Of a DNA stretch of 32,000 bases, positions 4,084 through 15,374 are shown in pieces. A program made the position numbers and the translations under genes. The number at the start of each line of letters is the position of its first letter. Within the stretch, counting starts at the first letter, position 1. The stretch comes from Geobacter sulfurreducens PCA (GTDB taxonomy: Bacteria; Desulfobacterota; Desulfuromonadia; Geobacterales; Geobacteraceae): positions 2,940,001 to 2,972,000 of the forward strand of contig NC_002939.5 of NCBI RefSeq assembly GCF_000007985.2, read 5' to 3'. A model generated the notes under the pieces. It did no database searches. It had not been told where the DNA came from and saw nothing but the letters and a program-made list of their open reading frames with translations.

Positions 4084-5376
4084 TTACTCCCCTTGGTCAG
4101 TCCCCAGCTTTGCCAGCAATTCCTCTTTCCCTGACACGCTCATCTTATCGTAAATCCGTTTCATGTAGGTCTTGACCGAAGATTCGGAGATGCCCAGCTC
4201 CCGGGCTGCCTCCCTGAACGTCATCCCTCGGACGACGCAGGCGAGGACCGACTTTTCCTGGTCGGAGAAGCGCTTGCGCAGACCCGGCGGAAGCATCAGC
4301 TCAAAGGTCGGCTCAGCGTTGCCGGCCTCGGCTTCCGCCTGATCAGCCATGCCTCCGATTGCCGGAATGGCCGCCACATCCAGGTGCTGTTCGCCTCGCA
4401 TGACCAGATAAAGAACAAGAACCGATGAAGTGAGGACGAGATTCGCTACAGCCACCACCAGTTGAGAGGCGTCGCCGATCAGGAGCGAGGCCGTCTTGCC
4501 TGCAGCTATGCCGGCGCAGGTGACCGCAAGACCGATGCCGAAGGCACGGCAGCTGTTTCTCTGGGCAAGAAGCAGCGCCAGCAGGTAGAGATCGAGGAAC
4601 CCCGCTGCCACCTGCATGGCGAACAGGGCCACGTTAACCGATGCCGCCCCGTCTATCAGAACGAGGGAAAAGGCGAACATGGCCATCACGATAGCCAGGG
4701 CCAGAAGCCCCTCCCTCCGGCGGCGCAGGAACATAAGCCCCACAAGGACGGCTACTACGTAAAAGGCGAGTTCGATCCCGGGAAGAAAGGCTGCCTCGGC
4801 ATATTCCTGGTACAGGGCCCCGTACATGAGACCACTTACGATCTGAAAAACGAACACGAAGGGGAGAAAGGGGGCCAGGTTCGATTCCCCGTCGGCTTCG
4901 TCCTGAGCCCCGGTGCGTGCCAGCGTGGGAACCAGAAGCAAGGCTGCCGCGGCCGGGAATTTCACGCTGTGGGGCACGGGAACGATCATGAACACGAAGA
5001 GCAGGACATTGGCCGCTGCCAGGCCGACTGCAGCCGATACCGCTACTGTGGGAGAGCGCTTCAGGATGCTGCCCGCCTTGACGCAAACAAAAGCTGATCC
5101 CACGCCGGCCGTGGCCAGAAACCAGGGGACTCCGGCAGGGACCTGGGCGATCAGCAGCGTCGAGCCTGCGGCGGCTGCTCCGCCGACGGCTGCCAGGGGC
5201 GGCAGCATCCGCCGCGGAAGAGCGGCGCCTATGACTGCCAGCGTAACGACGTGGGGAATGAGAAAAAAGAGGATAGCGTTGCCCGACCCGACGTGGGCCA
5301 GCAGGAATCCCTCCATGGGGAGGGCAAGGAGCCAGACGACAAAGGCGACAAAGGGAAGTGATGCTGTAAGGGTCAT
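4084..5376 (-). CDS. LuxR/FixJ-type HTH transcriptional regulator fused to a ~10-TM N-terminal membrane domain
   Basis: About 345 residues consist of consecutive hydrophobic helices. The C-terminus FSDQEKSVLACVVRGMTFREAARELGISESSVKTYMKRIYDKMSV is a GerE/LuxR HTH. The start is ATG 5376. Confidence 0.85.
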   Translation of the reverse strand: MTLTASLPFVAFVVWLLALPMEGFLLAHVGSGNAILFFLIPHVVTLAVIGAALPRRMLPPLAAVGGAAAAGSTLLIAQVPAGVPWFLATAGVGSAFVCVKAGSILKRSPTVAVSAAVGLAAANVLLFVFMIVPVPHSVKFPAAAALLLVPTLARTGAQDEADGESNLAPFLPFVFVFQIVSGLMYGALYQEYAEAAFLPGIELAFYVVAVLVGLMFLRRRREGLLALAIVMAMFAFSLVLIDGAASVNVALFAMQVAAGFLDLYLLALLLAQRNSCRAFGIGLAVTCAGIAAGKTASLLIGDASQLVVAVANLVLTSSVLVLYLVMRGEQHLDVAAIPAIGGMADQAEAEAGNAEPTFELMLPPGLRKRFSDQEKSVLACVVRGMTFREAARELGISESSVKTYMKRIYDKMSVSGKEELLAKLGTDQGE

Positions 5377-5428: not shown

Positions 5429-5469
5429 GGTTGACAGCTTGGTCTACATTAATTTTGCCGGTTGACAGC
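5429..5469. repeat. Direct repeat GGTTGACAGC x2, 31 bp start-to-start; candidate regulator-binding sites
   Basis: The copies lie at 5429-5438 and 5460-5469 in the 311-bp divergent intergenic region between the membrane LuxR gene and the envelope operon. Similarity continues imperfectly (nnGGT...ATT) for about 10 more bp after each copy. Confidence 0.4.
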
Positions 5470-5687: not shown

Positions 5688-7295
5688 ATGAAGCGACTGA
5701 AAAAGGCCCGGCGACTGCGGCTGCTCACGGCGTGGCTGGCAGTGGTGGCACTGGCGCCGGCCGCGGCACTGGCGGCTGAACACGAGATTCACGGCTCCAA
5801 CGACTTTTCGATTACCTACAATGACGTGCAGGGTGCCGGCGGGAGTCAGTCGTCCCTCACCGAGGGAACACGGTACCTGGAGATTCTCAACCTCTTCGGC
5901 AACGGCCGGGCGGGAGACTTCGACTACAACTGGACCGTGGGAGCCAAGGCTACCGACGACCGGCGCAATGACCAGAAGACCTTCTCTCTCACCAACCTCC
6001 AGGGCAGAGTCAGCAACAAGATCCACACGATCACCCTGGGCGACACCTTCGAGGCGTTCTCCCAGTACTCTCTCAACACTGCGGTCAAGGGCGGCTCCTA
6101 CAAGTTCACCCCGGAACAGTCCTATCTTCCCCAGTTGAGCCTCCTGTACGGCATCGCCTACTCCCGCTGGGATAACTTCTGGGGGGTGGACGCGGTGGAG
6201 CGGCAGGTGGCGGGCGGCAAAATCAGGCAGAACATCGGTCCGGACTTCTGGATCGGCCTGAGCGGAGTCCAGACCAATGATCACGTACGGGTCCTGGGCG
6301 GAGAGCTGACCAACCACCAGACCTGGACCGTCGACTGGGAATACCGCCCGATCCCCGGGCTCACCATCCAGGGGGAATCCTCGTGGCTCAACGGCGACAG
6401 GAGCCCGAGCGACGGCGCCCCCTTTGACGCCTACCACGGCCATGCCCACAAGGTGGTGGCCATCGGCGACGGCGGCCCCAGCCGGGTAACGCTCGAATAC
6501 GAGCGGGTCTCGCCCGAGTTCAGGACCACCATCGGGTCCGCCACTCCCGACCGGGAGAAGGTGAAAGCCAAGTGGCGCTACAAGTACAGCAAGGATCTCA
6601 GCATCACCAGCGCCATGCTCTGGTACCACGACAACCTGGACGGACAGAAGGCCTACGGCACCGACCACTACAAACCCGAGATCGCAGTCTCCCTGAAAAA
6701 ACCGTTCAAGCGCCAGTACGCGGTGGCCGACATCAGCTACAAGCTCGACCGGGCTTACAGTCCCGTGATGCGGAGCCTTGACCACTATATCACCATGGGA
6801 TACCGTGACCGCTTCGGCGTCCTGGACAGCGACTCCACCTTCGGCATCATCGTCTACGACCAGAACGGCACCGCCAAGCGCAAGGACGTGGAATTCACCT
6901 ACAACACCAGCCTCTCCAGCAGGCATACCCTGGGACGGTTCGTGCTGAAGCCCTCCATCTACCTGGGGGGCTGGACCCACAACGACGAGGTGGCCGAGAA
7001 CACCGACCAGATTGTGGAATACTCTGCCGGCTTGGGCGTGGACGTGCCCGACCTGAAGATAACCTCCACCATCAGGGTGGGCGAAAACCGTCTCCTCAAA
7101 GAGGCCGGCACCGATACGGCAAAGACCTTCGCCGGCGTGAACGTCTTCTGGCGGCCCGAAATGCTCGCCAAGGCGCAGGGGATGCTCTACGCCAAGGCGA
7201 GTGTCAATGACTTCCGCTACGACCCCAGCCTGGCCGCCGGCAGCCGGAACTTCCGGGAGACCAGCGTCACCGCGGGCATCAGCATCCAGTTCTGA
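5688..7295 (+). CDS. Outer-membrane beta-barrel protein, unclassified family
   Basis: GGGAGG RBS. The signal peptide is MKRLKKARRLRLLTAWLAVVALAPAAALA/AEHE. The composition is beta-strand-like, rich in Y/G/T/S/D, throughout. The C-terminus SVTAGISIQF carries the terminal aromatic residue typical of BAM substrates. Confidence 0.8.
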   Translation: MKRLKKARRLRLLTAWLAVVALAPAAALAAEHEIHGSNDFSITYNDVQGAGGSQSSLTEGTRYLEILNLFGNGRAGDFDYNWTVGAKATDDRRNDQKTFSLTNLQGRVSNKIHTITLGDTFEAFSQYSLNTAVKGGSYKFTPEQSYLPQLSLLYGIAYSRWDNFWGVDAVERQVAGGKIRQNIGPDFWIGLSGVQTNDHVRVLGGELTNHQTWTVDWEYRPIPGLTIQGESSWLNGDRSPSDGAPFDAYHGHAHKVVAIGDGGPSRVTLEYERVSPEFRTTIGSATPDREKVKAKWRYKYSKDLSITSAMLWYHDNLDGQKAYGTDHYKPEIAVSLKKPFKRQYAVADISYKLDRAYSPVMRSLDHYITMGYRDRFGVLDSDSTFGIIVYDQNGTAKRKDVEFTYNTSLSSRHTLGRFVLKPSIYLGGWTHNDEVAENTDQIVEYSAGLGVDVPDLKITSTIRVGENRLLKEAGTDTAKTFAGVNVFWRPEMLAKAQGMLYAKASVNDFRYDPSLAAGSRNFRETSVTAGISIQF

Positions 7296-7365
7296 CGGAA
7301 ATGGTGTATCCTTGACTGCACTGCGCCCGTACGCAGCCAAGCGGATGCCCCTCGGGAGGTTCACT

Positions 7366-7842
7366 ATGAAAGCCTATAGCGCCGGACTCTTCCTGCTGCT
7401 CGCCTGTGCCCTTCTTCCCGCCTGCGCGGGGCTGCAGATCGGCGGAGGCGGCGATTCGCCCTCTGCCCTGGCCATGACGAGCCACGGGCAGGTGAGGCAG
7501 ACCATCGACCGGCTCATCGCCGCCTATGAGGCAAAAGACAGTCGCGGCTTCTCCGAGTTGGTGAGCGAACGATACACGGGCGAGGCGGCCATTCTCGAAA
7601 CCGCCGTCCGGCGAGACTTCAGCGCCAACCACAACCTGGCGATCCGCTACACCGTCAACAACATTACCCTCGACGATGGCGGCAAGGCCTTTGCGGCCAT
7701 CACCTTCACCCGGTCCTGGACTGACGTCAAGACCGCCAGAACCATGAACGAAACCAGGGAAACATCCCTGGTGTTCATCCGTGAAAACGGCACCTACAGG
7801 CTCTACAGCCAGAACGGCCCGCCGCTGTTCGGGCTGCACTGA
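7366..7842 (+). CDS. Small exported protein / probable lipoprotein (158 aa) consisting of one NTF2-like (SnoaL/DUF4440-like) module
   Basis: GGGAGG lies 7 nt upstream of ATG 7366. The N-terminus is MKAYSAGLFLLLACALLPACAG, with lipobox-like LLAC/LPAC. The module begins IDRLIAAYEAKDSRGFSELVSERYTGE, a pattern typical of NTF2-like domains. The longer track ORF from 7201 overlaps the OMP gene and was rejected. Confidence 0.8.
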   Translation: MKAYSAGLFLLLACALLPACAGLQIGGGGDSPSALAMTSHGQVRQTIDRLIAAYEAKDSRGFSELVSERYTGEAAILETAVRRDFSANHNLAIRYTVNNITLDDGGKAFAAITFTRSWTDVKTARTMNETRETSLVFIRENGTYRLYSQNGPPLFGLH

Positions 7843-7877
7843 ACGAGCAGATACCCTTACCGATTCAGGAGGAATCC

Positions 7878-9218
7878 ATGAACGCAGTACGATTCTTTGT
7901 CATTCTGACCATGCTGGCCCTGCTGCCCGCCACCGGTCATGCCAAATGGTGGATCTTCGGGCAGGCGGAGAATGAGATCTCCACCCGCTACCTTTATCTG
8001 AACGGCATCTCCTACGACGAGCTGGGTGACAAGGTCACCATCTACCGGGAGACTCTGGACAACGGCCAGGTGGTCCTGCGGGGCAAGGCCGCCACCAGTT
8101 CGTCGGCAGTGGGCTCGGTGCAGGTCAGCACCACCAACAGGGAACGCTGGGAAAAGGCCCGCAAGACCTCCGACGGCAGCTTCGAATATGCCTTCCGCCC
8201 TGAAACGGGCGCATCCTACGTGCTCTACGTCAAGATCATCGACACCACCGGCAAGACCAACGACGTGGATGCCACCCGCAAGGAGATCGTCATCTCCGAC
8301 CGGAACATCTCGGCCCTCATCCGCCAGGCCCTTGATGAGCTGGTTGCGGCCTACCGGGCCGAAGACCCGGCCCGCTTCATGGCCCTTGTCAGCGAGGATT
8401 TCGCCGCGGACCCCGCCGTGCTCGACCGGGCCATCCGCCGGGATTTCACCGCTTTCGACAACATCGATCTGAGCTACACCCTGAACAACGTAACCGCCGC
8501 CAACGGCAAGATCTACGCCGGCTTCACCTTCAGCCGCAAGTTGACCTCTACCCGGAGCGGCCAGACCCTCTCCGACAAGGGTTCCAGTGAGTTCATCTTC
8601 AGCCTCGGGGAAAAGGGGCCGCTGGTGTTCAGCATGAAAAATCCTCTCATCTTCGGCCTCTCCGATGCCTCCAACGTGGCCACGGGCACGGTCAACACCG
8701 GCACGAACGAACCGGTGATCGTCGTGACCAGCAGCGGCGACGTTATCACCCAGCCGTTCACCGAGGCCATCACGACCATCGACAATGGCGGCGTGGTGCA
8801 AACGACAGCTGATACGGTAGAGGCGGGCAGTTTCACTCTCAGTAACAGTTGCCCCGAGGACTCGTGCATTCAGCCGGGATTCCTCTTCAGTTCACAGGAA
8901 GTGACGAACATGTGGACCGGTGACATCAATCTGGAAATCAACCTCATGTTCATCAAGAGCGGCATCGGAATCCAGAACCTGGGGGCGGTCGGCATCAATA
9001 CGGTGACCTCGGCCCCCGCAAGCGGCTATGTCGTTTCAGACGGAACCGGCCTTACCGGCTTCATCGTCGGCGACAACATCGGCAACACCTTTGCGTTCCA
9101 ATTGCTGAACGGCAAGTACGCCCTGCTGGAGGTGGTCTCCTACACCGATCTCGGCGCTGCCAAAACCCGCTCAACCTTCCGATACAAGTACCAACCAGAC
9201 GGAACCCGCAATTTCTAG
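7878..9218 (+). CDS. Exported 446-aa protein: N-terminal beta-sandwich-like region, central NTF2-like module, C-terminal beta-rich domain
   Basis: AGGAGG RBS. The signal peptide is MNAVRFFVILTMLALLPATGHA/KWW. Residues ~144-261 (nt 8307-8660) align clearly with the preceding lipoprotein. Confidence 0.8.
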   Translation: MNAVRFFVILTMLALLPATGHAKWWIFGQAENEISTRYLYLNGISYDELGDKVTIYRETLDNGQVVLRGKAATSSSAVGSVQVSTTNRERWEKARKTSDGSFEYAFRPETGASYVLYVKIIDTTGKTNDVDATRKEIVISDRNISALIRQALDELVAAYRAEDPARFMALVSEDFAADPAVLDRAIRRDFTAFDNIDLSYTLNNVTAANGKIYAGFTFSRKLTSTRSGQTLSDKGSSEFIFSLGEKGPLVFSMKNPLIFGLSDASNVATGTVNTGTNEPVIVVTSSGDVITQPFTEAITTIDNGGVVQTTADTVEAGSFTLSNSCPEDSCIQPGFLFSSQEVTNMWTGDINLEINLMFIKSGIGIQNLGAVGINTVTSAPASGYVVSDGTGLTGFIVGDNIGNTFAFQLLNGKYALLEVVSYTDLGAAKTRSTFRYKYQPDGTRNF

Positions 9219-9232
9219 CGGCACCAGTACCG

Positions 9233-9265
9233 GAGCCGGCAGGGAACGTCCTGCCGGCTCTTTTT
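9233..9265 (+). terminator. Intrinsic terminator/attenuator inside the operon
   Basis: The stem GAGCCGGCAGG / CCTGCCGGCTC is a perfect 11 bp with a 6-nt loop GAACGT, followed by TTTTT. It begins 15 nt after the stop of the 446-aa gene and ends 3 nt before the AGGAGG of the next gene. Confidence 0.7.
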
Positions 9266-9279
9266 GCAGGAGGAGATCC

Positions 9280-12200
9280 ATGAGAACCCTTATCCGCTGC
9301 GTCCTGTTCTGCCTGCTGCTCATTCCCGCCGCGGCCCGGGCCGATGACCAGGTAGCCATGGTGCAGGGACAGATCCAGATGGCTCAGGAGCGTCTGACGG
9401 CATACCAGGGGGAGCTGAGCAGCACCCTCTCCCTGCTGCAGAAAACTCCCAGCGAGGCCACCTTCCAGAAGATCAGGGACCTGCAGGACCGGATCCGGCG
9501 CCAGGGGAACGTGGTGGACACCCTGAGAATGGCCCTGCAGGATGCCCGGGCCGCCCAGAGCTGGAGCGCCCTGGTGAGCGACATGGCCAAGAACTCAACC
9601 ATCCTTGGGCTGGGCGCCGACATCGGGGTATCGGTCTATCAGTCGGGCAAGTGGATCTTCGGTGCCACCGATGATGAAATTTACGGCGAGAACTGGCAGC
9701 AGGTGGAGAGCTACAACGCGAAGCTGGTGGCCGAAGCTCGCGCCATCCGGGATGAGTCGAAGGCCATCCTCGGCGCCCTTGACCAGGTTAAGGCCCAGCT
9801 CAATGCCGGCGGCTCCGAGGAGCAGCTCCGCTCCCTGGCTGAAACCCTGTCGGCGCGGCTCCGGGAACTGCAGACCCGAGGGGAGCAGGTCAAAAAGAAC
9901 ATCCGCCTGCTGATCCGCATCTACCGGGCGGAAAAGGAAAATCTCCCTGCCTCGACCCTTTTTCACGGGGTCTTCATGGGGCGCTACACCGAAAAGATGG
10001 TGGAGGAATTCGACGCTTCCAAGCTGGTTGATCTGGTCATCGACGTCATCAAGGGGGATACCAACGACGCGCTGATCAAGCTCATCAAGCCCATGGTCAA
10101 GACCGCCGTGGGGGACTATCTGGCCAAGAATGCCGGCGGCGGGCACCTGACCCCGGAGATCACCGACGACCTGGTCTTCAAGATCCTCTTCGGCGGCGAG
10201 AGCGGCTTCGACGCCCTGATCCAGGACCGGCTCGGCGACGAGGCCGGCGGCGCAGCCATCAAGGGGCTCGTGAAGGAAGTGGTCGCGGCCGAAGCGAACC
10301 ACGTAATCCTCAAGTCCAATCAGCAGTTCTACGGGGCCATGAAGCGCACCCTGAGCACCATGCCTCCCACCGCCGACATCGTCGAGCATACGTTGGTGGT
10401 GGACACCACCGACCAACTGGTGAAGGAGCACAAATCCCTCGTGGAGAGCGGCGCCCGGGCCAAGGCCCAGCGGCTGGCCCAGACCGGCGAGGCAATCAAG
10501 AAAGTCTGGGACCTGGTGCTCAAGGACGCGGTGCAGGCATACCTGCAGAAGGATTCCTTCAACAACGCGGTCAAGGCGGCCGACGAGGCCTGCGAGACCT
10601 GGCGAGGGGAATGGCGCAAGGTCAGGGATGACATGATCCTGACCGAGGATGAGTACGTCAACCACCGCTGGTTCAAGGGGGGGCAGAATGCCGCGGCCCC
10701 TCCGAAACAGGTTGTTGGTGGGACGGAGGATACCGGTAAGACCTATGCGGCGTTCAATCCAGAAGAAGCCGGCAAGCTGCTCGAAGCCCGGAAGCGCCTC
10801 GTGGAGTCGGGTGTCGGGGAAGGGGGAAGTGCCGGCCTGGGAGATTTCGACGCCAACGAGGACGGCCTGGTGGTACTGGCCTGCAACGGCGGGATTCCCC
10901 TCGGACGGGTCGGCTTCGTCCCCCTGCGTGATGTCAAAAAGCTCACCTCCGCAGCACTGTTCGCGCCCTGCGACGAACTGAGCATCCGGCGCAGTGCCGA
11001 AATTGAGGCGGGATACAAGGCATGCGAACACCTCTGGAATCCGCAGTCGGTCAACGAATACTTCGCGTGCAAGGATGCCATGAGGGTCAAGAACAATGCC
11101 TACGCGGAAGAGATCAACCGGTGCATTGACACCAATGTCACCCAGCCCCACCAAGCATTTGCCCAGCGCCGGTTGGAACGGCACCGGCGGCTGAACGACT
11201 GCGAGACGAAACGCTATCAGGAAACGGTGAGGCGAATCCAGGCGGAGATCGCCCCCGCCGTCTCCTGGGCCGAGAGCGTGAGGGGTGACGTAGAGCGGCT
11301 CCAGGAGGCCATCAACAAGCTGCGGCGCTCCGGTCTCATGTACCCGGAAGCACCGCCGCGGCTCCCCGCGGACATCGGCGCAGCCGTTGAGGAGGAGGAG
11401 TACGACACCGCTTCTGCCGACGACAAAATTGCCATGATCCGAGCCAATCTGGGCATCACCAGGGGAATCGACGTGGCGGGCCTTGAGAGTGCCCTGGCCA
11501 GGGCCGACTTCGTGGTGGACTGGGCATCCGTTGACTCGGGCGGGACTCCGTACCTCTGCAAAGAGTTCGTCCTGAACAACCAGCCCGGAATCGAAGAGGT
11601 GGAGTGTACCGGGGGCTATTATGCCCAGGATGAGCAGCTGCTGCAGGACATGGCCCTGATCGCCACCATCAACCCATCGACGGTTCAGGAACTGGTGAGC
11701 CACGGCCGACAGCTTCCGGAGGTGGCCAACCGGCCCCTCCTGGAAGCCATGACCGGCTTCTCCCCCCAGGAAAGCGTCAACCTCTATCGGCAGGGGATGA
11801 GCCAGCGGAACCGGGCCAGGGCGGCCATCGATGGGGTGAACAGCCGCCTCCTGGACGTGGAGAACGTCCTGTCAGGCTCCTCCGTGGCGCAGATATCCCT
11901 CTACTACGACTACCAGTTCACCCCCTGGAAGGTCCGCCGGATCCCGACGCTCCTGGGCCAGGACCTGGACGCCCTCGAAGGGCACATCAGGGAAATGCGG
12001 ACCCGCTTCAACGCCGACAGACAGGTGGTCATCCCCGACTATGATGCCCTGCGGCGCGAAGCAGAGGCCGCCAGCGGCGCGGTGGCGCAGTACCGGGAGA
12101 TATACGGGCGGTATGCCGCCCTGCTGACCAAGCACTTCCCCACGGCGTTTGTCGATGAATTCTCCCCTCCCGACCTGAGCGGTCTCGTGTCGGCCATCGA

Positions 12201-13008
12201 TGCCCAGGCCTTCCTGGCGGAGCGGTATGCCGAGGAATTCAAGCGGGCCGCCACGGCCCTGGATGAAATGGAACGGGAGGTACAGGCCCTCCGCCGCCAG
12301 GAGGAGCAGTCCCTGAAGGGGCTGGAGATCTACCACCAGGCCAGGGCCGGCGCCGTCAAAAAGGCCGCCGGTTCCTGCGCCGCGCTCCCCGCAGACCCGG
12401 AGGGATGCCTCAAGGCCGTTGAGGAAAGCAAGGCTCAACTGCTGGCAATAACTCTGCAGGGAGACATCCTGACCCACTTCCCGTCGCAGAAGTACCGGGA
12501 CCGCCGCGACGAAATCCTGGCCGGCTCCCGAATTGACTACGACATCTATGCGTTGGAGGCAAAGGCAAAGGCGGCCATCGAACAGCGGGAACAGGACGAA
12601 ACCCGGAAACGCGAGGACCGGGAAACCAACGCCCCCCTGAGAATCGCCGAATTCTATCAGCAATTCCGCGGCGCCTATGAGGGGCGCAACGATTCACAAC
12701 TCATCAGCTTCCTTGGCGACGACTGGGAATCGGGCGACGGCACCACCCTTGCCGACCTCCAGGGCTACCTGCGGAACAGCTTCTCGGTGTTCGACGAAAT
12801 CCGCTACACCCAGAGCAATCTCCAGATCCACCCTGCTGCTCAGGGGGGTTACCGGGTCACCTACGATCTGGCCATAATCGGCAGGATCTATGCGGACAAC
12901 CTGACCCATGAGGAAAAATCCACCGTCAGTGAGGAACTGGCCTTCGACAACGGAGGGAAACTGCGGATCACAAGAACCACCGGCGGCCGCTTCTGGTCGG
13001 TGCAGTAG
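9280..13008 (+). CDS. Exported 1242-aa, predominantly alpha-helical/coiled-coil protein with C-terminal NTF2-like module; unknown function
   Basis: AGGAGG RBS. The signal peptide is MRTLIRCVLFCLLLIPAAARA/DDQ. Long heptad-like E/K/R/Q/A/L-rich stretches are present. Six Cys lie within ~110 residues (nt ~10880-11205). The last 126 aa (12628-13005) follow the same module pattern as the two upstream proteins. Confidence 0.85.
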   Translation: MRTLIRCVLFCLLLIPAAARADDQVAMVQGQIQMAQERLTAYQGELSSTLSLLQKTPSEATFQKIRDLQDRIRRQGNVVDTLRMALQDARAAQSWSALVSDMAKNSTILGLGADIGVSVYQSGKWIFGATDDEIYGENWQQVESYNAKLVAEARAIRDESKAILGALDQVKAQLNAGGSEEQLRSLAETLSARLRELQTRGEQVKKNIRLLIRIYRAEKENLPASTLFHGVFMGRYTEKMVEEFDASKLVDLVIDVIKGDTNDALIKLIKPMVKTAVGDYLAKNAGGGHLTPEITDDLVFKILFGGESGFDALIQDRLGDEAGGAAIKGLVKEVVAAEANHVILKSNQQFYGAMKRTLSTMPPTADIVEHTLVVDTTDQLVKEHKSLVESGARAKAQRLAQTGEAIKKVWDLVLKDAVQAYLQKDSFNNAVKAADEACETWRGEWRKVRDDMILTEDEYVNHRWFKGGQNAAAPPKQVVGGTEDTGKTYAAFNPEEAGKLLEARKRLVESGVGEGGSAGLGDFDANEDGLVVLACNGGIPLGRVGFVPLRDVKKLTSAALFAPCDELSIRRSAEIEAGYKACEHLWNPQSVNEYFACKDAMRVKNNAYAEEINRCIDTNVTQPHQAFAQRRLERHRRLNDCETKRYQETVRRIQAEIAPAVSWAESVRGDVERLQEAINKLRRSGLMYPEAPPRLPADIGAAVEEEEYDTASADDKIAMIRANLGITRGIDVAGLESALARADFVVDWASVDSGGTPYLCKEFVLNNQPGIEEVECTGGYYAQDEQLLQDMALIATINPSTVQELVSHGRQLPEVANRPLLEAMTGFSPQESVNLYRQGMSQRNRARAAIDGVNSRLLDVENVLSGSSVAQISLYYDYQFTPWKVRRIPTLLGQDLDALEGHIREMRTRFNADRQVVIPDYDALRREAEAASGAVAQYREIYGRYAALLTKHFPTAFVDEFSPPDLSGLVSAIDAQAFLAERYAEEFKRAATALDEMEREVQALRRQEEQSLKGLEIYHQARAGAVKKAAGSCAALPADPEGCLKAVEESKAQLLAITLQGDILTHFPSQKYRDRRDEILAGSRIDYDIYALEAKAKAAIEQREQDETRKREDRETNAPLRIAEFYQQFRGAYEGRNDSQLISFLGDDWESGDGTTLADLQGYLRNSFSVFDEIRYTQSNLQIHPAAQGGYRVTYDLAIIGRIYADNLTHEEKSTVSEELAFDNGGKLRITRTTGGRFWSVQ

Positions 13009-13162
13009 GCTTATTCCGCTGGAATCAACGTACTAACACGTGCATTGACTATTCGCCCCCCCTCAGTCGCCCTTATAAAATAGGGGGTAAGCCGAAGGCG
13101 GGGGGATAAGATGCGCTGTCGAGTAATCAGGTTTCGTCTTAGTATAACCGGGCGAGTTAATG

Positions 13163-13199
13163 ACAAGGCCCCGCCTGACTGCTGCCGGCGGGGCCTTGT
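13163..13199. terminator. Strong hairpin between convergent genes (bidirectional terminator candidate)
   Basis: ACAAGGCCCCGCC / GGCGGGGCCTTGT is a perfect 13-bp stem with an 11-nt loop, followed by TTGTTGTTG on the plus strand. It lies 20 nt beyond the stop of the minus-strand gene at 13220. Confidence 0.7.
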
Positions 13200-13219
13200 T
13201 GTTGACGCGTAGCGCTTCC

Positions 13220-15286
13220 TCAGAACCCGCGCAGGCTTTCCACCCGCGTGATCAGAGTCGCGCCCCGAATCCGCTCCAGTGTAGCGGTAACTACCGCCAC
13301 ATCGTTATCGAAAGAGCCGTGGGCAAGGGGTATCAGGCCTTGGCCGTCCGAAACCTTTTCCCGTTCCTTGCCGTGGACCCGCACGGGCCCCATTCCCCCC
13401 ATGAAGTTCCGCCACACGTCCACCTCGCCGGCGGCGCGCTGGTTCCAGAGGTCTGCCTGGCCGGGAACAGGACGCCACGCCCCTTCCATACCGAGAATCG
13501 GCATCTTGTGGTAGTCCTCCAACGCCCGGCTCACCAGGTAGAGGAGTGATTTGCCGTAGGGACCCACGGTGTCGGCGCGCTCCCGCTCGTCGCTCAGAAT
13601 ATCGAAGAAGAGGCGGTTCCGATCCACCAGCCCGCGATTGACGGCGGGAACGTAATGGGCCAGGGCAAAACCCACGGTGCAGGCCGGGGCGTAGAGCGAG
13701 ATGCTGGCCACGGGGATCTTTTTCTGACCCAGCCGGTCCAGGAGATGTCCATGGAGGATGGAACCGGCCGAGTGCCCCACGAGATGGATTTCCAGGGAGG
13801 GAATCTGTTTCCTGAGCTCGGCCAGGTGCCCGGCCAGGAGCGTCAGTCCGGCCTCGCGGTCCGCCGCGGCCGCGGCATTCTGCTTCATCTGCATCCAGAC
13901 CGGTTTGACGAGCAGGTTCTCGCTGGCAACCTCCACCGAGCGGTCCCGGGCGTCCTCCAGCCGGTTTTTGATGTCGTCCCACCACCCTCGCGACGGGTCC
14001 TGTGCCGAGGGTTTGAAGAATTTCCCCACGGCATCTTCGAGCATGCCGGCAATGCTCTCGCCGAAGCCGGTTTTCCAGGTCACGAACAGGGGATAGATGT
14101 CGTTGGCCAGGAAGTAGGGGGCCATGACCCTGATCCGCTTGATGGAGGCATCCTCGTCGTTGAGCCCCCCGTGGGCGTAAATGGCGAGCTTTGGTGCGCT
14201 CCTGCCCGACAGCCAGGCCAGCGGCAGGCGGTAGGTGGCCTCTTTCACGGCGCCGGCGGCATCGGACACGTCGAGGAACCGGTTGATGGGGCAGCCGTCA
14301 TTGCCGAGCACAACGGTGTGCTCATAGGCCCGGGATTCACTCAGGGGCTCCACGGCCGGATTCACATAGGTGAAGGGCTTGGAGGTGCTGCCCGAACTCC
14401 AGTACCACGCAGCCTTGCCGTTGGCCACTTCCTGGAGGGTCATGCTGCTCATGGTGCGCCCCTCGCCGCTCACGAGCATGGGGGCGCCCAGGACCGCCAC
14501 CCAGGCGTCGGAGCCATGCTGGATCCAGTCCTCGTAGGTCATGATGGCGAACCCCAGGTATCCCCAATCGTCTCCCCAGGAATTCTGCACGATGAACCCC
14601 TCCGGGGTGTAGCCCACCAGGGCGAAGGCGTGGCCCCCGGTCTCACCGGGTTGCATCCGGATCACCGGCAGGGTTGTCGAAGCATCCAGGAACCACCCCT
14701 TGTGGACCGCCGCCGAGACATAGACGGCCCCCACTTCGTTGATGGCCGCCTGCAGATCTGACACCGAATCCTTGTCGACCCGGTAATACGCTCCCAGAGG
14801 CCGCTGGGCCGCGTCCTGCTGCCACCCCTCCTTTGGGGGGACGAACTTCTGCTTGTAGGGCCAGAGCAGGTCGGTGCAGATGCCGTGGCGGTGCCACCCT
14901 TTCATGGCCCCGCGGCAGCTGGAGCCTTCGTAATCCTCACCGGGCCACTCATCATAGATACGGGCCATGTGGTAGAGCATCCGGGGACTCACCCGGGGAA
15001 CCTTTCCCCCCTTGCGGCCGCGCTGTTTCACCTCCTCCAGATGTTTGCGCCAGTTGAGGTAGTTGATGACCGCGGCCAAGCCGAAGCCGGTGCAGGCCCC
15101 TTCGGTCCCCTGGTCGAGGACCAGTTTGTGGACCTTGGTATAGTCGGCCAGAAAGGTGGTGATGAACGACGGATCGGGGTACTGGGGGGGAAGACTTACC
15201 AGTGGCGGATCGTAGCGGCGGTCACGGTAATCGACACGGTCGGGGCGGGCGTCGAAAATCCGTCCCTGGATTTCTCGCGTGGGCAT
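13220..15286 (-). CDS. Fusion protein: N-terminal papain-like (C1 family) cysteine peptidase + C-terminal DUF900-like alpha/beta hydrolase; no signal peptide
   Basis: The start is ATG 15286, with AAGGAGG 5 nt upstream. C1 motifs: DYRD, Q68...GAC74TGFG (Cys codon at 15092-15094), GGH228AFALVGY and VQN244SWGDDWGYLGF. Hydrolase motifs: LAIYAHGGLNDE, FVTWKTGF, HLVGHS515AGS (Ser codon 13769-13771) and a late LAHGSFD. Residue numbers follow the 697-aa track ORF. Confidence 0.85.
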   Translation of the reverse strand: MPTREIQGRIFDARPDRVDYRDRRYDPPLVSLPPQYPDPSFITTFLADYTKVHKLVLDQGTEGACTGFGLAAVINYLNWRKHLEEVKQRGRKGGKVPRVSPRMLYHMARIYDEWPGEDYEGSSCRGAMKGWHRHGICTDLLWPYKQKFVPPKEGWQQDAAQRPLGAYYRVDKDSVSDLQAAINEVGAVYVSAAVHKGWFLDASTTLPVIRMQPGETGGHAFALVGYTPEGFIVQNSWGDDWGYLGFAIMTYEDWIQHGSDAWVAVLGAPMLVSGEGRTMSSMTLQEVANGKAAWYWSSGSTSKPFTYVNPAVEPLSESRAYEHTVVLGNDGCPINRFLDVSDAAGAVKEATYRLPLAWLSGRSAPKLAIYAHGGLNDEDASIKRIRVMAPYFLANDIYPLFVTWKTGFGESIAGMLEDAVGKFFKPSAQDPSRGWWDDIKNRLEDARDRSVEVASENLLVKPVWMQMKQNAAAAADREAGLTLLAGHLAELRKQIPSLEIHLVGHSAGSILHGHLLDRLGQKKIPVASISLYAPACTVGFALAHYVPAVNRGLVDRNRLFFDILSDERERADTVGPYGKSLLYLVSRALEDYHKMPILGMEGAWRPVPGQADLWNQRAAGEVDVWRNFMGGMGPVRVHGKEREKVSDGQGLIPLAHGSFDNDVAVVTATLERIRGATLITRVESLRGF

Positions 15287-15291
15287 GGCGG

Positions 15292-15374
15292 CCTCCTTGT
15301 CACCAGCGGGCATAGGATAATGCCCTTATTTGATTGATGAAAGTCTGCCACACTTTTCAATGGTGACAAGGAGG
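15292..15374 (-). promoter_or_regulatory. Structured 5' leader: perfect 14-bp stem sequestering the Shine-Dalgarno of the peptidase-hydrolase gene
   Basis: The plus strand has CCTCCTTGTCACCA at 15292-15305 and its exact reverse complement TGGTGACAAGGAGG at 15361-15374. In the minus-strand mRNA, the upstream CCUCCUUGUCACCA therefore pairs with UGGUGACAAGGAGG, which contains the SD. The 55-nt loop holds two smaller hairpins (UGAAAAGU/ACUUUCA and GGGCAU/AUGCCC). Confidence 0.55.

Follow-up and report, generated by a model that had tools for sequence, protein, structure and literature searches.

A conserved, undescribed envelope cassette of Geobacter sulfurreducens: a predicted large outer-membrane barrel and partners with related NTF2-like domains

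Introduction

What do four adjacent genes for exported proteins, GSU2671 to GSU2674, build in the envelope of Geobacter sulfurreducens PCA? The genes lie in a 32,000-nucleotide (nt) stretch of its genome (here called the window; positions 2,940,001 to 2,972,000 of contig NC_002939.5, forward strand), and all coordinates below are window positions. An earlier note, made from the letters of this DNA, had described an unclassified outer-membrane barrel with three exported partners and had proposed an undescribed system for cell-surface assembly or export. The present analysis finds that the cassette is a genuine, conserved and undescribed envelope module, far from any described system; that part of the proposal stands, whereas the role in export or surface assembly is one that we infer. 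Three families with no curated family, solved relative or literature form a strictly conserved outer-membrane module in many phyla, and their hosts include the electroactive model organism PCA, syntrophs (Syntrophorhabdus, Smithella), Sulfurospirillum, Nitrospirota, Elusimicrobia and Omnitrophota.

The four genes and their products

The genes of the cassette in PCA are as follows.

5688-7295, plus strand: GSU2671, the barrel protein, 535 amino acids (aa)
7366-7842, plus strand: GSU2672, a small lipoprotein of 158 aa, whose start is an internal ATG within a longer open reading frame (ORF) that begins with GTG
7878-9218, plus strand: GSU2673, a protein of 446 aa, here called the adaptor
9280-13008, plus strand: GSU2674, the giant protein, 1242 aa

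The ORFs are exactly as they had been described: four co-directional genes, separated by gaps of 70, 35 and 61 nt, each with a strong Shine-Dalgarno sequence (GGGAGG or AGGAGG) 6-8 nt 5′ of its start, and all four products carry a Sec-type signal peptide at the N-terminus. They are real genes and not chance ORFs, as judged from exact matches of window proteins to AAR36043, AAR36045 and AAR36046 of PCA, from hundreds of homologs, and from ratios of nonsynonymous to synonymous divergence (dN/dS) of 0.09-0.17. The first of these accessions is the barrel, which UniProt names an 'outer membrane channel'. The locus tags were deduced from the consecutive accessions together with the flanking GSU2670 and GSU2675, which are named in a transcriptome paper.

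The absence of heme-binding CXXCH motifs and of signatures of known systems, remarked on earlier by eye, is confirmed by search. In particular, none of the four proteins contains CXXCH, searches of all four against Pfam and NCBIfam gave no match above threshold, and a PADLOC scan found nothing in them either. Together with searches of the PDB, these family searches, which had been set as a check, place no protein of the cassette in a described system. A search of the accessible literature on GSU2671-2674, or on systems that combine a barrel with NTF2-like proteins, found nothing beyond the one transcriptome paper on GSU2670 and GSU2675.

Conservation of the cassette

The scan for related loci, made with one genome per species, yielded 63 loci and, with the window, 64 non-redundant sources. 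The loci fall in Desulfuromonadota, Desulfobacterota, Nitrospirota, Campylobacterota, Elusimicrobiota and Victivallales. Their hosts are Geobacter and other Desulfuromonadales, Syntrophorhabdaceae (including the cultured S. aromaticivorans UI), Smithella/Syntrophus, Desulfatiglans, Desulfobacula, Nitrospirae/Thermodesulfovibrio, Sulfurospirillum, Sulfuricurvum and other Campylobacterales, Elusimicrobia and Victivallales. At the level of domain annotation, every locus has a common core that consists of the barrel, an adaptor of about 400-490 aa and a giant protein of about 1000-1400 aa that ends in a C-terminal domain which we call N2c. Unsupervised clustering of the flanking ORFs recovers the barrel and the adaptor in 64/64 sources each and the giant in 56/64, and several of the eight sources that lack a giant are truncated contigs. 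The adaptor adjoins the barrel in all 64 sources, and barrel, adaptor and giant are adjacent in essentially all 63 loci. Conserved synteny on this scale rules out that the genes are neighbours by chance, which the earlier note had named as the case against its own proposal.

Beyond the core, three recurrent families were judged genuine, namely a LuxR regulator in 14 loci, a tetratricopeptide repeat (TPR) protein in 13 and a sigma-54 response regulator in 10. The other ORF clusters that recur are unannotated, lie mostly on the opposite strand and were taken as spurious. The small lipoprotein, counted earlier among the parts of the system, is not a core part but an accessory, present in about a third of the loci and at variable positions. 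Further, many loci hold multiple adaptor-giant pairs or extra giants (for example L007-L009, L018, L031 and L051), with sometimes two to four pairs per locus, and several loci have a small gene directly 3′ of the giant gene. PCA carries a single adaptor-giant pair.

A remote cassette is found in an Omnitrophota contig (L070, JBMONI010000024.1, 7663-23507), where a barrel homolog of 586 aa (E 1e-16) is accompanied by an NTF2-like lipoprotein of 151 aa and by giants of 1542, 1529 and 1344 aa. In these giants the C-terminal 390 aa or so form a complete adaptor module (Ig-like, NTF2-like and beta domains) in place of N2c, and the body of an Omnitrophota giant is about 33% identical to GSU2674 over more than 80% of the query. 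This join of giant and adaptor reads as a Rosetta-stone fusion, which is evidence at the level of sequence that the parts work together. The next gene of the Omnitrophota contig encodes a protein of 1536 aa with CarboxypepD_reg/CARDB domains.

The barrel

GSU2671 had been recognized as a probable barrel from its composition and from its C-terminal ...GISIQF, and its AlphaFold2 (AF2) model agrees, with 26 strand elements that form a barrel of about 26 strands (predicted local distance difference test score, pLDDT, of 89; predicted template modelling score, pTM, of 0.73). The first strand of the model begins at residue 33, right behind the signal peptide (about residues 1-29), the C-terminus is a beta-signal, and the model has no plug, no periplasmic domain and a longest loop of at most 14 aa.

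The barrel has no Pfam-A match at E<=1 and no NCBIfam match, and searches of PDB sequences with GSU2671 alone and with a profile of 33 homologs returned nothing (profile, E<=10). Foldseek comparison of the AF2 model, which had also been set as a check, matches the barrel only to other large barrels at 8-11% identity, namely MtrB, the FimD usher, AlgE and SlpA; the best are MtrB (6r2q_B, TMq 0.56, 9% identity) and FimD (TMq 0.48-0.50), both of them barrels that hold a partner or serve in translocation. As far as the model goes, this similarity is a generic likeness among large barrels. A lead to 'BfrB' (8b6a) led nowhere. Four barrel homologs (P0035, P0042, P0043 and P0062) carry a precomputed PF21620 tag, but hmmscan with the current Pfam-A gave no such match at E<=1.

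More than 220 homologs of GSU2671 were found, all of them annotated as hypothetical. The protein is about 50% identical between phyla, which is unusually conserved for an outer-membrane protein. Moreover, conservation is higher at positions that face the lumen (0.72) than at those that face the lipid (0.61), and in six putative outer loops it is 0.67-0.82. Conservation of this kind is what one would expect of a barrel in extensive contact with other proteins.

The adaptor, the lipoprotein and their common domain

The adaptor is divided into the following parts.

Residues 1-22: signal peptide
7944-7961, plus strand: KWWIFG peptide, residues 23-28
7974-8297, plus strand: Ig-like domain, residues ~33-140
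8307-8663, plus strand: NTF2-like domain, residues ~144-262
8712-9215, plus strand: C-terminal beta domain, residues ~279-446

The protein had been called an exported, beta-rich one; the signal peptide is there, but the protein is not simply beta-rich, since its AF2 model (pLDDT 86) has three domains that are Ig-like, NTF2-like (alpha+beta) and beta. Residues 144-253 of the model contain helices at 144-160, 164-168 and 179-192 and four long strands, and Foldseek matches the adaptor to two proteins of the NTF2-like fold, 3hx8 and 3rob (TMt 0.72-0.76), as well as to the Ig-like domain of sulfite oxidase. Its nearest multi-domain structural matches are Pgp2 and Bd1075, and a Foldseek search against viral structures gave only noise of the Ig/FN3 type (TM <=0.2).

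The KWWIFG-type motif directly behind the signal peptide occurs in 76 of the 82 members of the adaptor family and in 0 of 2215 background ORFs. It lies in a segment of low confidence in the monomer model (residues 19-32, pLDDT <50), and a near-invariant peptide with this property is what one expects of a partner-binding segment. At the other end of the adaptor (9167-9215) there is a conserved ...YKYQPDG(S/T)RNF, whose terminal Phe is near-invariant and recalls the outer-membrane beta-signal, yet the adaptor is predicted to be soluble.

GSU2672, rightly called a probable lipoprotein, has the lipobox LPAC with Cys20 and an NTF2-like domain at residues ~41-158. The lipobox is kept in homologs of the Geobacter type, and those of the Nitrospirae type have a plain signal peptide. 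In Pfam the protein approaches SnoaL_3 (E 0.003; 18.3 bits, cut-off 22); this match and one to SnoaL_2 (E 0.025) both stay below their gathering scores. Profile alignment with the NTF2-like domain of the adaptor gives an hhalign probability of 100% (E 1e-51), and GSU2672 is a stand-alone copy of that domain. N2c, the C-terminal domain of the giant, aligns to the same adaptor domain with an hhalign probability of 95.7% (E 1e-8) and to the lipoprotein with 91%. By these profile comparisons, one NTF2-like domain is common to the adaptor, the lipoprotein and the giant, with N2c as its more distant homolog, and the AF2 model of the adaptor assigns the common module to the NTF2-like fold class (alpha+beta). 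The claim that the three partners have no recognisable function is overturned to this extent, as they share a recognisable domain. NTF2-like domains commonly homodimerize or heterodimerize, as in NTF2 itself and in NXF1-NXT1, and the cone-shaped NTF2/SnoaL fold commonly binds ligands, which are often hydrophobic.

The giant protein and its interchangeable bodies

The giant has two parts.

9280-12633, plus strand: signal peptide and variable body, residues 1-1118
12634-13008, plus strand: C-terminal NTF2-like domain N2c, residues ~1119-1242, with the stop codon at 13006-13008

The body of GSU2674 is rich in Ala, Leu and Glu, has 11 Cys in the mature part, and from its sequence is probably largely helical. 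No Pfam domain was found in the protein, and PDB searches, with the single sequence and with a profile of the body, gave only weak matches to coiled coils and helical bundles (WipA, designed bundles, occludin), which were taken as noise. When 1.84 billion representatives were searched exhaustively with HMMER, 328 of them matched GSU2674 at E<=1e-10, mostly proteins of 1000-1400 aa; among the matches listed, all that contain N2c end with it at the extreme C-terminus of the protein. The body is of a rare type, found in only four representatives, one at 55% identity (P0127) and three from Omnitrophota at 33-34%.

This contrast between body and C-terminus holds throughout the loci. The N2c domain, about 120 aa long, is 40-62% identical across all loci, whereas the bodies are unalignable, and the bodies of 65 giants fall into at least 11 unrelated clusters. 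The difference appears even between close relatives: a Geobacter metagenome-assembled genome (MAG; L006) has a barrel, adaptor and lipoprotein that are 84%, 83% and 69% identical to those of the window, and a giant of a different body type, in which only the C-terminal domain aligns to that of GSU2674 (46%). Read from these alignments, giant bodies are swapped between close relatives. The earlier picture of a single exported helical cargo is correct as to the signal peptide and probably as to the helical body, but the protein is a swappable body on a conserved C-terminal domain and not one conserved cargo. Fixed as it is at the C-terminus of unrelated, swapped bodies, N2c looks like a tag by which exposed, polymorphic proteins are sorted or anchored.

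A Pfam scan that covered 15 giants of various clusters as well as the Omnitrophota proteins recognized only ten PASTA repeats, all in one protein. This is the giant of a Desulfuromonadales MAG (L050, 5413-9624), in which the ten PASTA domains (E 1.6e-88) precede the conserved C-terminal domain; such a protein is unusual in a diderm and hints at peptidoglycan binding.

Two further observations concern single body types. The segment KWIFGATDDEIYGENWQ (9649-9702, GSU2674 residues ~124-141) is kept in the Nitrospirae loci L022 and L054 and in the Omnitrophota giant of 1542 aa (g1542), resembles the N-terminal KWWIFGQ..E(I/V) of the adaptor, and is absent from the other 62 giants. A KWWIFG-like motif as a feature of all giants was rejected: only bodies of the window type (the window, L022, L054 and g1542) have W[IL]FGA(S/T)..(E/D)(I/L)(F/Y)G. 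In every locus with a giant of cluster 2 (about 1078 aa), the gene directly upstream of the giant gene encodes an exported TPR protein of about 400 aa (L018, 13140-14417, and 12 other loci), which is probably a type-specific partner.

Selection and recombination

Strain comparison used G. sulfurreducens PCA and AP017912 (L071), in which the locus is syntenic. With dN/dS values in the range given above (0.09 for the barrel), all four genes are under purifying selection. Synonymous divergence (dS) is 0.31-0.61 in the four genes versus 0.08-0.20 in flanking genes, and reaches 1.3 in adaptor residues 301-403. Such an island of raised dS points to a locus that is recombining, yet under purifying selection, and from the sequences suggests within-species allelic replacement by recombination. 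Positive selection was rejected as the source of the variability, given the low dN/dS and a variability that consists of the replacement of whole body types. Divergence of the adaptor NTF2-like domain is correlated with that of N2c in a mirror-tree comparison (Spearman 0.59).

Comparison with known systems

Several envelope systems resemble the cassette in part, and each differs from it in defining features. As in LptD-LptE, a barrel of about 26 strands, too wide to remain unplugged, is encoded with a small lipoprotein of the outer membrane (about 140-170 residues) that might fit into its lumen. However, GSU2671 has no LptD/OstA (OstA_C) match and no N-terminal jellyroll, and there is no LptE match (Pfam and NCBIfam, E<=1); the lipoprotein here is NTF2-like and dispensable in most loci, and the universal partners are a three-domain protein of 440 aa and a giant polymorphic protein. 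In MtrCAB, MtrB sheathes MtrA while MtrC is held at the surface, a logic that the cassette may share, and MtrB gives the top TM-score for the barrel model in a Geobacter host that has such complexes. In contrast, identity to MtrB is 9%, there is no MtrB_PioB match, and the partners carry NTF2-like domains; a role in heme binding or as an electron conduit was rejected because GSU2671-2674 lack CXXCH.

Type IX secretion likewise handles diverse large cargos with a small conserved domain at the extreme C-terminus and has a dedicated outer-membrane barrel (PorV). The cassette differs in having no Por_Secre_tail or PorV match (Pfam, NCBIfam), no motor or sortase genes of that system, a C-terminal domain that is NTF2-like instead of an Ig-like beta-sandwich, and other host phyla. 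Chaperone-usher and two-partner secretion systems also encode a large barrel beside exported substrates, and the FimD similarity noted above fits this, but it is limited to the barrel: there is no usher or PapD-chaperone match, and GSU2671 has neither the plug nor the periplasmic domains of an usher. Scans of the barrel and 16 giants with Pfam and NCBIfam found no POTRA, ShlB or two-partner secretion (TPS) domains, and the barrel has no Pfam-A match at E<=1 to Slam/type XI (DUF560), CsgG, Secretin, Autotransporter or Omp85 (Bac_surface_Ag/POTRA) families.

The same fold as in the partners is found in envelope NTF2-like proteins (the C-terminal domains of Pgp2, Csd6 and Bd1075, VirB8 and MlaC), where such domains serve targeting, dimerization and ligand binding in the periplasm. 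These relatives differ in that similarity to SnoaL/DUF4440 is sub-threshold and that none is tied to a dedicated barrel or to giants. Overall, membership of LptDE, Mtr, usher, TPS, type IX, Slam or curli systems was rejected, as the defining sequence features tested are all absent; by analogy, its closest counterparts in mode of action would be LptDE and MtrCAB, which are complexes of the plug-and-barrel or sheath kind, and its cargo logic is like that of type IX secretion.

Proposed mechanism and alternatives

The reading that we favour, with a probability of roughly 40%, is that a plug-and-barrel complex anchors or exports polymorphic giant proteins by pairing of NTF2-like domains. A barrel of about 26 strands with no plug and short loops cannot stand open and must be occupied. 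The adaptor, as the universal neighbour, would fill or cap it, as LptE does in LptD or MtrA in MtrB, and would dock through its N-terminal KWWIFG peptide and through its NTF2-like domain, its beta domain or both. The giant would then be recruited by pairing of its N2c with the NTF2-like domain of the adaptor, and the complex may export the variable body of about 1100 residues or hold it at the outer face as a polymorphic coat or adhesin. The lipoprotein, as a free NTF2-like module seated in the inner leaflet of the outer membrane, could occupy this docking site or regulate it, and GSU2670, the divergent regulator, would control the unit. A bolder form of this proposal, in which barrel and adaptor read the NTF2-like C-terminal domain as the sorting signal of a new export and display pathway for interchangeable giants, present in anaerobic diderms of at least six phyla and amounting to a new secretion 'type', is possible but doubtful. 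If an export or display route were true, it would be a new way for diderms to bring large proteins to the surface, with the NTF2 fold put to a new use in sorting or pairing, and the polymorphic giants would be candidates for cell-cell contact, aggregation and phage-receptor variation in syntrophic and metal-reducing communities. As PCA is genetically tractable and has one adaptor-giant pair, the hypothesis can be tested directly there.

Several points weigh against this mechanism. The proposed contacts between the proteins, the occupancy of the barrel lumen, the passage of the giant across the outer membrane and its exposure at the surface are all inferred, and the count of about 26 strands comes solely from the predicted model. 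At the level of genes there is no sign of positive selection, and the correlation between the adaptor NTF2-like domain and N2c falls to a weak partial correlation of just 0.26 once barrel divergence is removed. The cassette contains no energy source and no periplasmic chaperone. Moreover, some of the evidence points to the periplasm: an ordinary lipobox faces it by default, so that at least one NTF2 docking site would be periplasmic; one giant variant has ten PASTA domains; and Pgp2 and Bd1075 use their NTF2 domain in peptidoglycan-related targeting. For Bd1075, the domain is reported to be needed for targeting (PMC8938487).

These last points lead to the main rival, a periplasm-facing scaffold in which the barrel is only an anchor and the adaptor, lipoprotein and helical giants hang in the periplasm by NTF2 contacts, where they would bind or organize peptidoglycan or the periplasmic space as an outer-membrane tether or 'periskeleton'. 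The standard lipobox, with the inner leaflet of the outer membrane as its default position, the muropeptide-binding PASTA modules, the Foldseek matches to NTF2-containing peptidoglycan enzymes, and giants that are long, probably helical and Cys-rich all agree with such a scaffold, which would itself be a new envelope architecture. We nonetheless consider it rather unlikely, because a simple anchor has no need of a plugless 26-stranded barrel whose lumen face and putative outer loops are highly conserved, because wholesale body swapping and multi-copy loci are more typical of exposed proteins, and because PASTA domains occur in only 1 of the 15 giants scanned.

A passive uptake or efflux pore for large solutes, whose NTF2-like domains would bind or gate a small molecule or lipid as substrate, would suit a wide barrel that has neither plug nor TonB box, the frequent ligand binding of the NTF2/SnoaL fold and the name given in UniProt. 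Such a channel is improbable: it leaves the polymorphic partners of about 1000-1400 aa, their C-terminal domain and the fusions unexplained, a pore of 26 strands would kill the cell if it stood open, and no gene for a transporter, an enzyme or a substrate pathway is conserved nearby. Polymorphic giants, cassette swapping, several copies per locus and, in several loci, a small gene right after the giant also recall the delivery of effectors or toxins to neighbouring cells, as in contact-dependent inhibition (CDI) or two-partner systems, with the small protein of the conserved domain as the protective factor. Here the probability is very low, as no toxin, POTRA, ShlB or TPS domain was found and neither PADLOC nor Pfam gave a match, the conserved part is C-terminal and the whole body variable (the reverse of CDI and Rhs), and the small protein is conserved instead of polymorphic and absent from most loci.

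Regulator, promoter region and boundaries of the locus

The features that flank or punctuate the cassette are as follows.

4084-5376, minus strand: GSU2670, a membrane-embedded regulator of the LuxR/GerE type, divergent from the barrel gene
5429-5438 and 5460-5469, unstranded: direct repeat GGTTGACAGC, two exact copies of 10 nt, 31 nt apart, in the divergent promoter region of GSU2670 and GSU2671
9232-9267, plus strand: terminator- or attenuator-like hairpin, a GC-rich stem of 13 bp followed by UUUUU, between GSU2673 and GSU2674
13156-13206, unstranded: strong hairpin between the convergent GSU2674 and GSU2675 (folding free energy, dG, of -38.5 kcal/mol; z -6.5)

GSU2670, noticed earlier as a divergent membrane LuxR regulator, is one: it has a C-terminal GerE helix-turn-helix (HTH) domain at residues 370-420 (Pfam, E 3e-12), preceded by about 10-11 hydrophobic or transmembrane segments (11 in the hydropathy scan), and its homologs hold the same divergent position in the 14 loci counted above. 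In the biofilm of a gsu1771 mutant, GSU2670 was upregulated, and GSU2671-2674 were not among the differentially expressed genes of that study (PMC10599522).

The locus of G. sulfurreducens AP017912 keeps the GGTTGACAGC block, and that of the Geobacter MAG (L006) has it nearly unchanged, against an intergenic background that diverges. Each copy is a candidate for a -35 box or for a site where a regulator binds. A poorly conserved leader of about 200 nt follows 3′ of them, and an Rfam scan of the window, including the leader of about 310 nt, gave no match.

The hairpin between the third and fourth genes starts 13 nt past the adaptor stop codon and lies just 5′ of the Shine-Dalgarno sequence of GSU2674; the fold of 9222-9270 has a dG of -28.5 kcal/mol and a z of -5.0, equalled by 0 of 200 shuffles. 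At this position it makes a single uniform operon transcript less than certain, and it is possibly an attenuator that lowers the dose of the giant protein. The corresponding gap between adaptor and giant in L006 is only 32 nt, so that the hairpin is not universal. The hairpin at 13156-13206 is probably a bidirectional terminator that closes the unit. A simple scan for promoters and terminators was uninformative and missed both of these strong hairpins.

Other genes of the window are not conserved with the cassette, among them those for histidine kinases, EamA, a ferredoxin-like protein, PanE and an ABC-2 transporter, and GSU2675 does not adjoin the cassette outside G. sulfurreducens. This convergent gene (13220-15313, minus strand) encodes a protein of 697 aa with a papain-like Peptidase_C1 domain (E 7e-9) and, in its C-terminal half, a weak sub-threshold match to an alpha/beta-hydrolase family. 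GSU2675 was downregulated in the gsu1771-mutant biofilm, where it is classed under proteolysis (PMC10599522).

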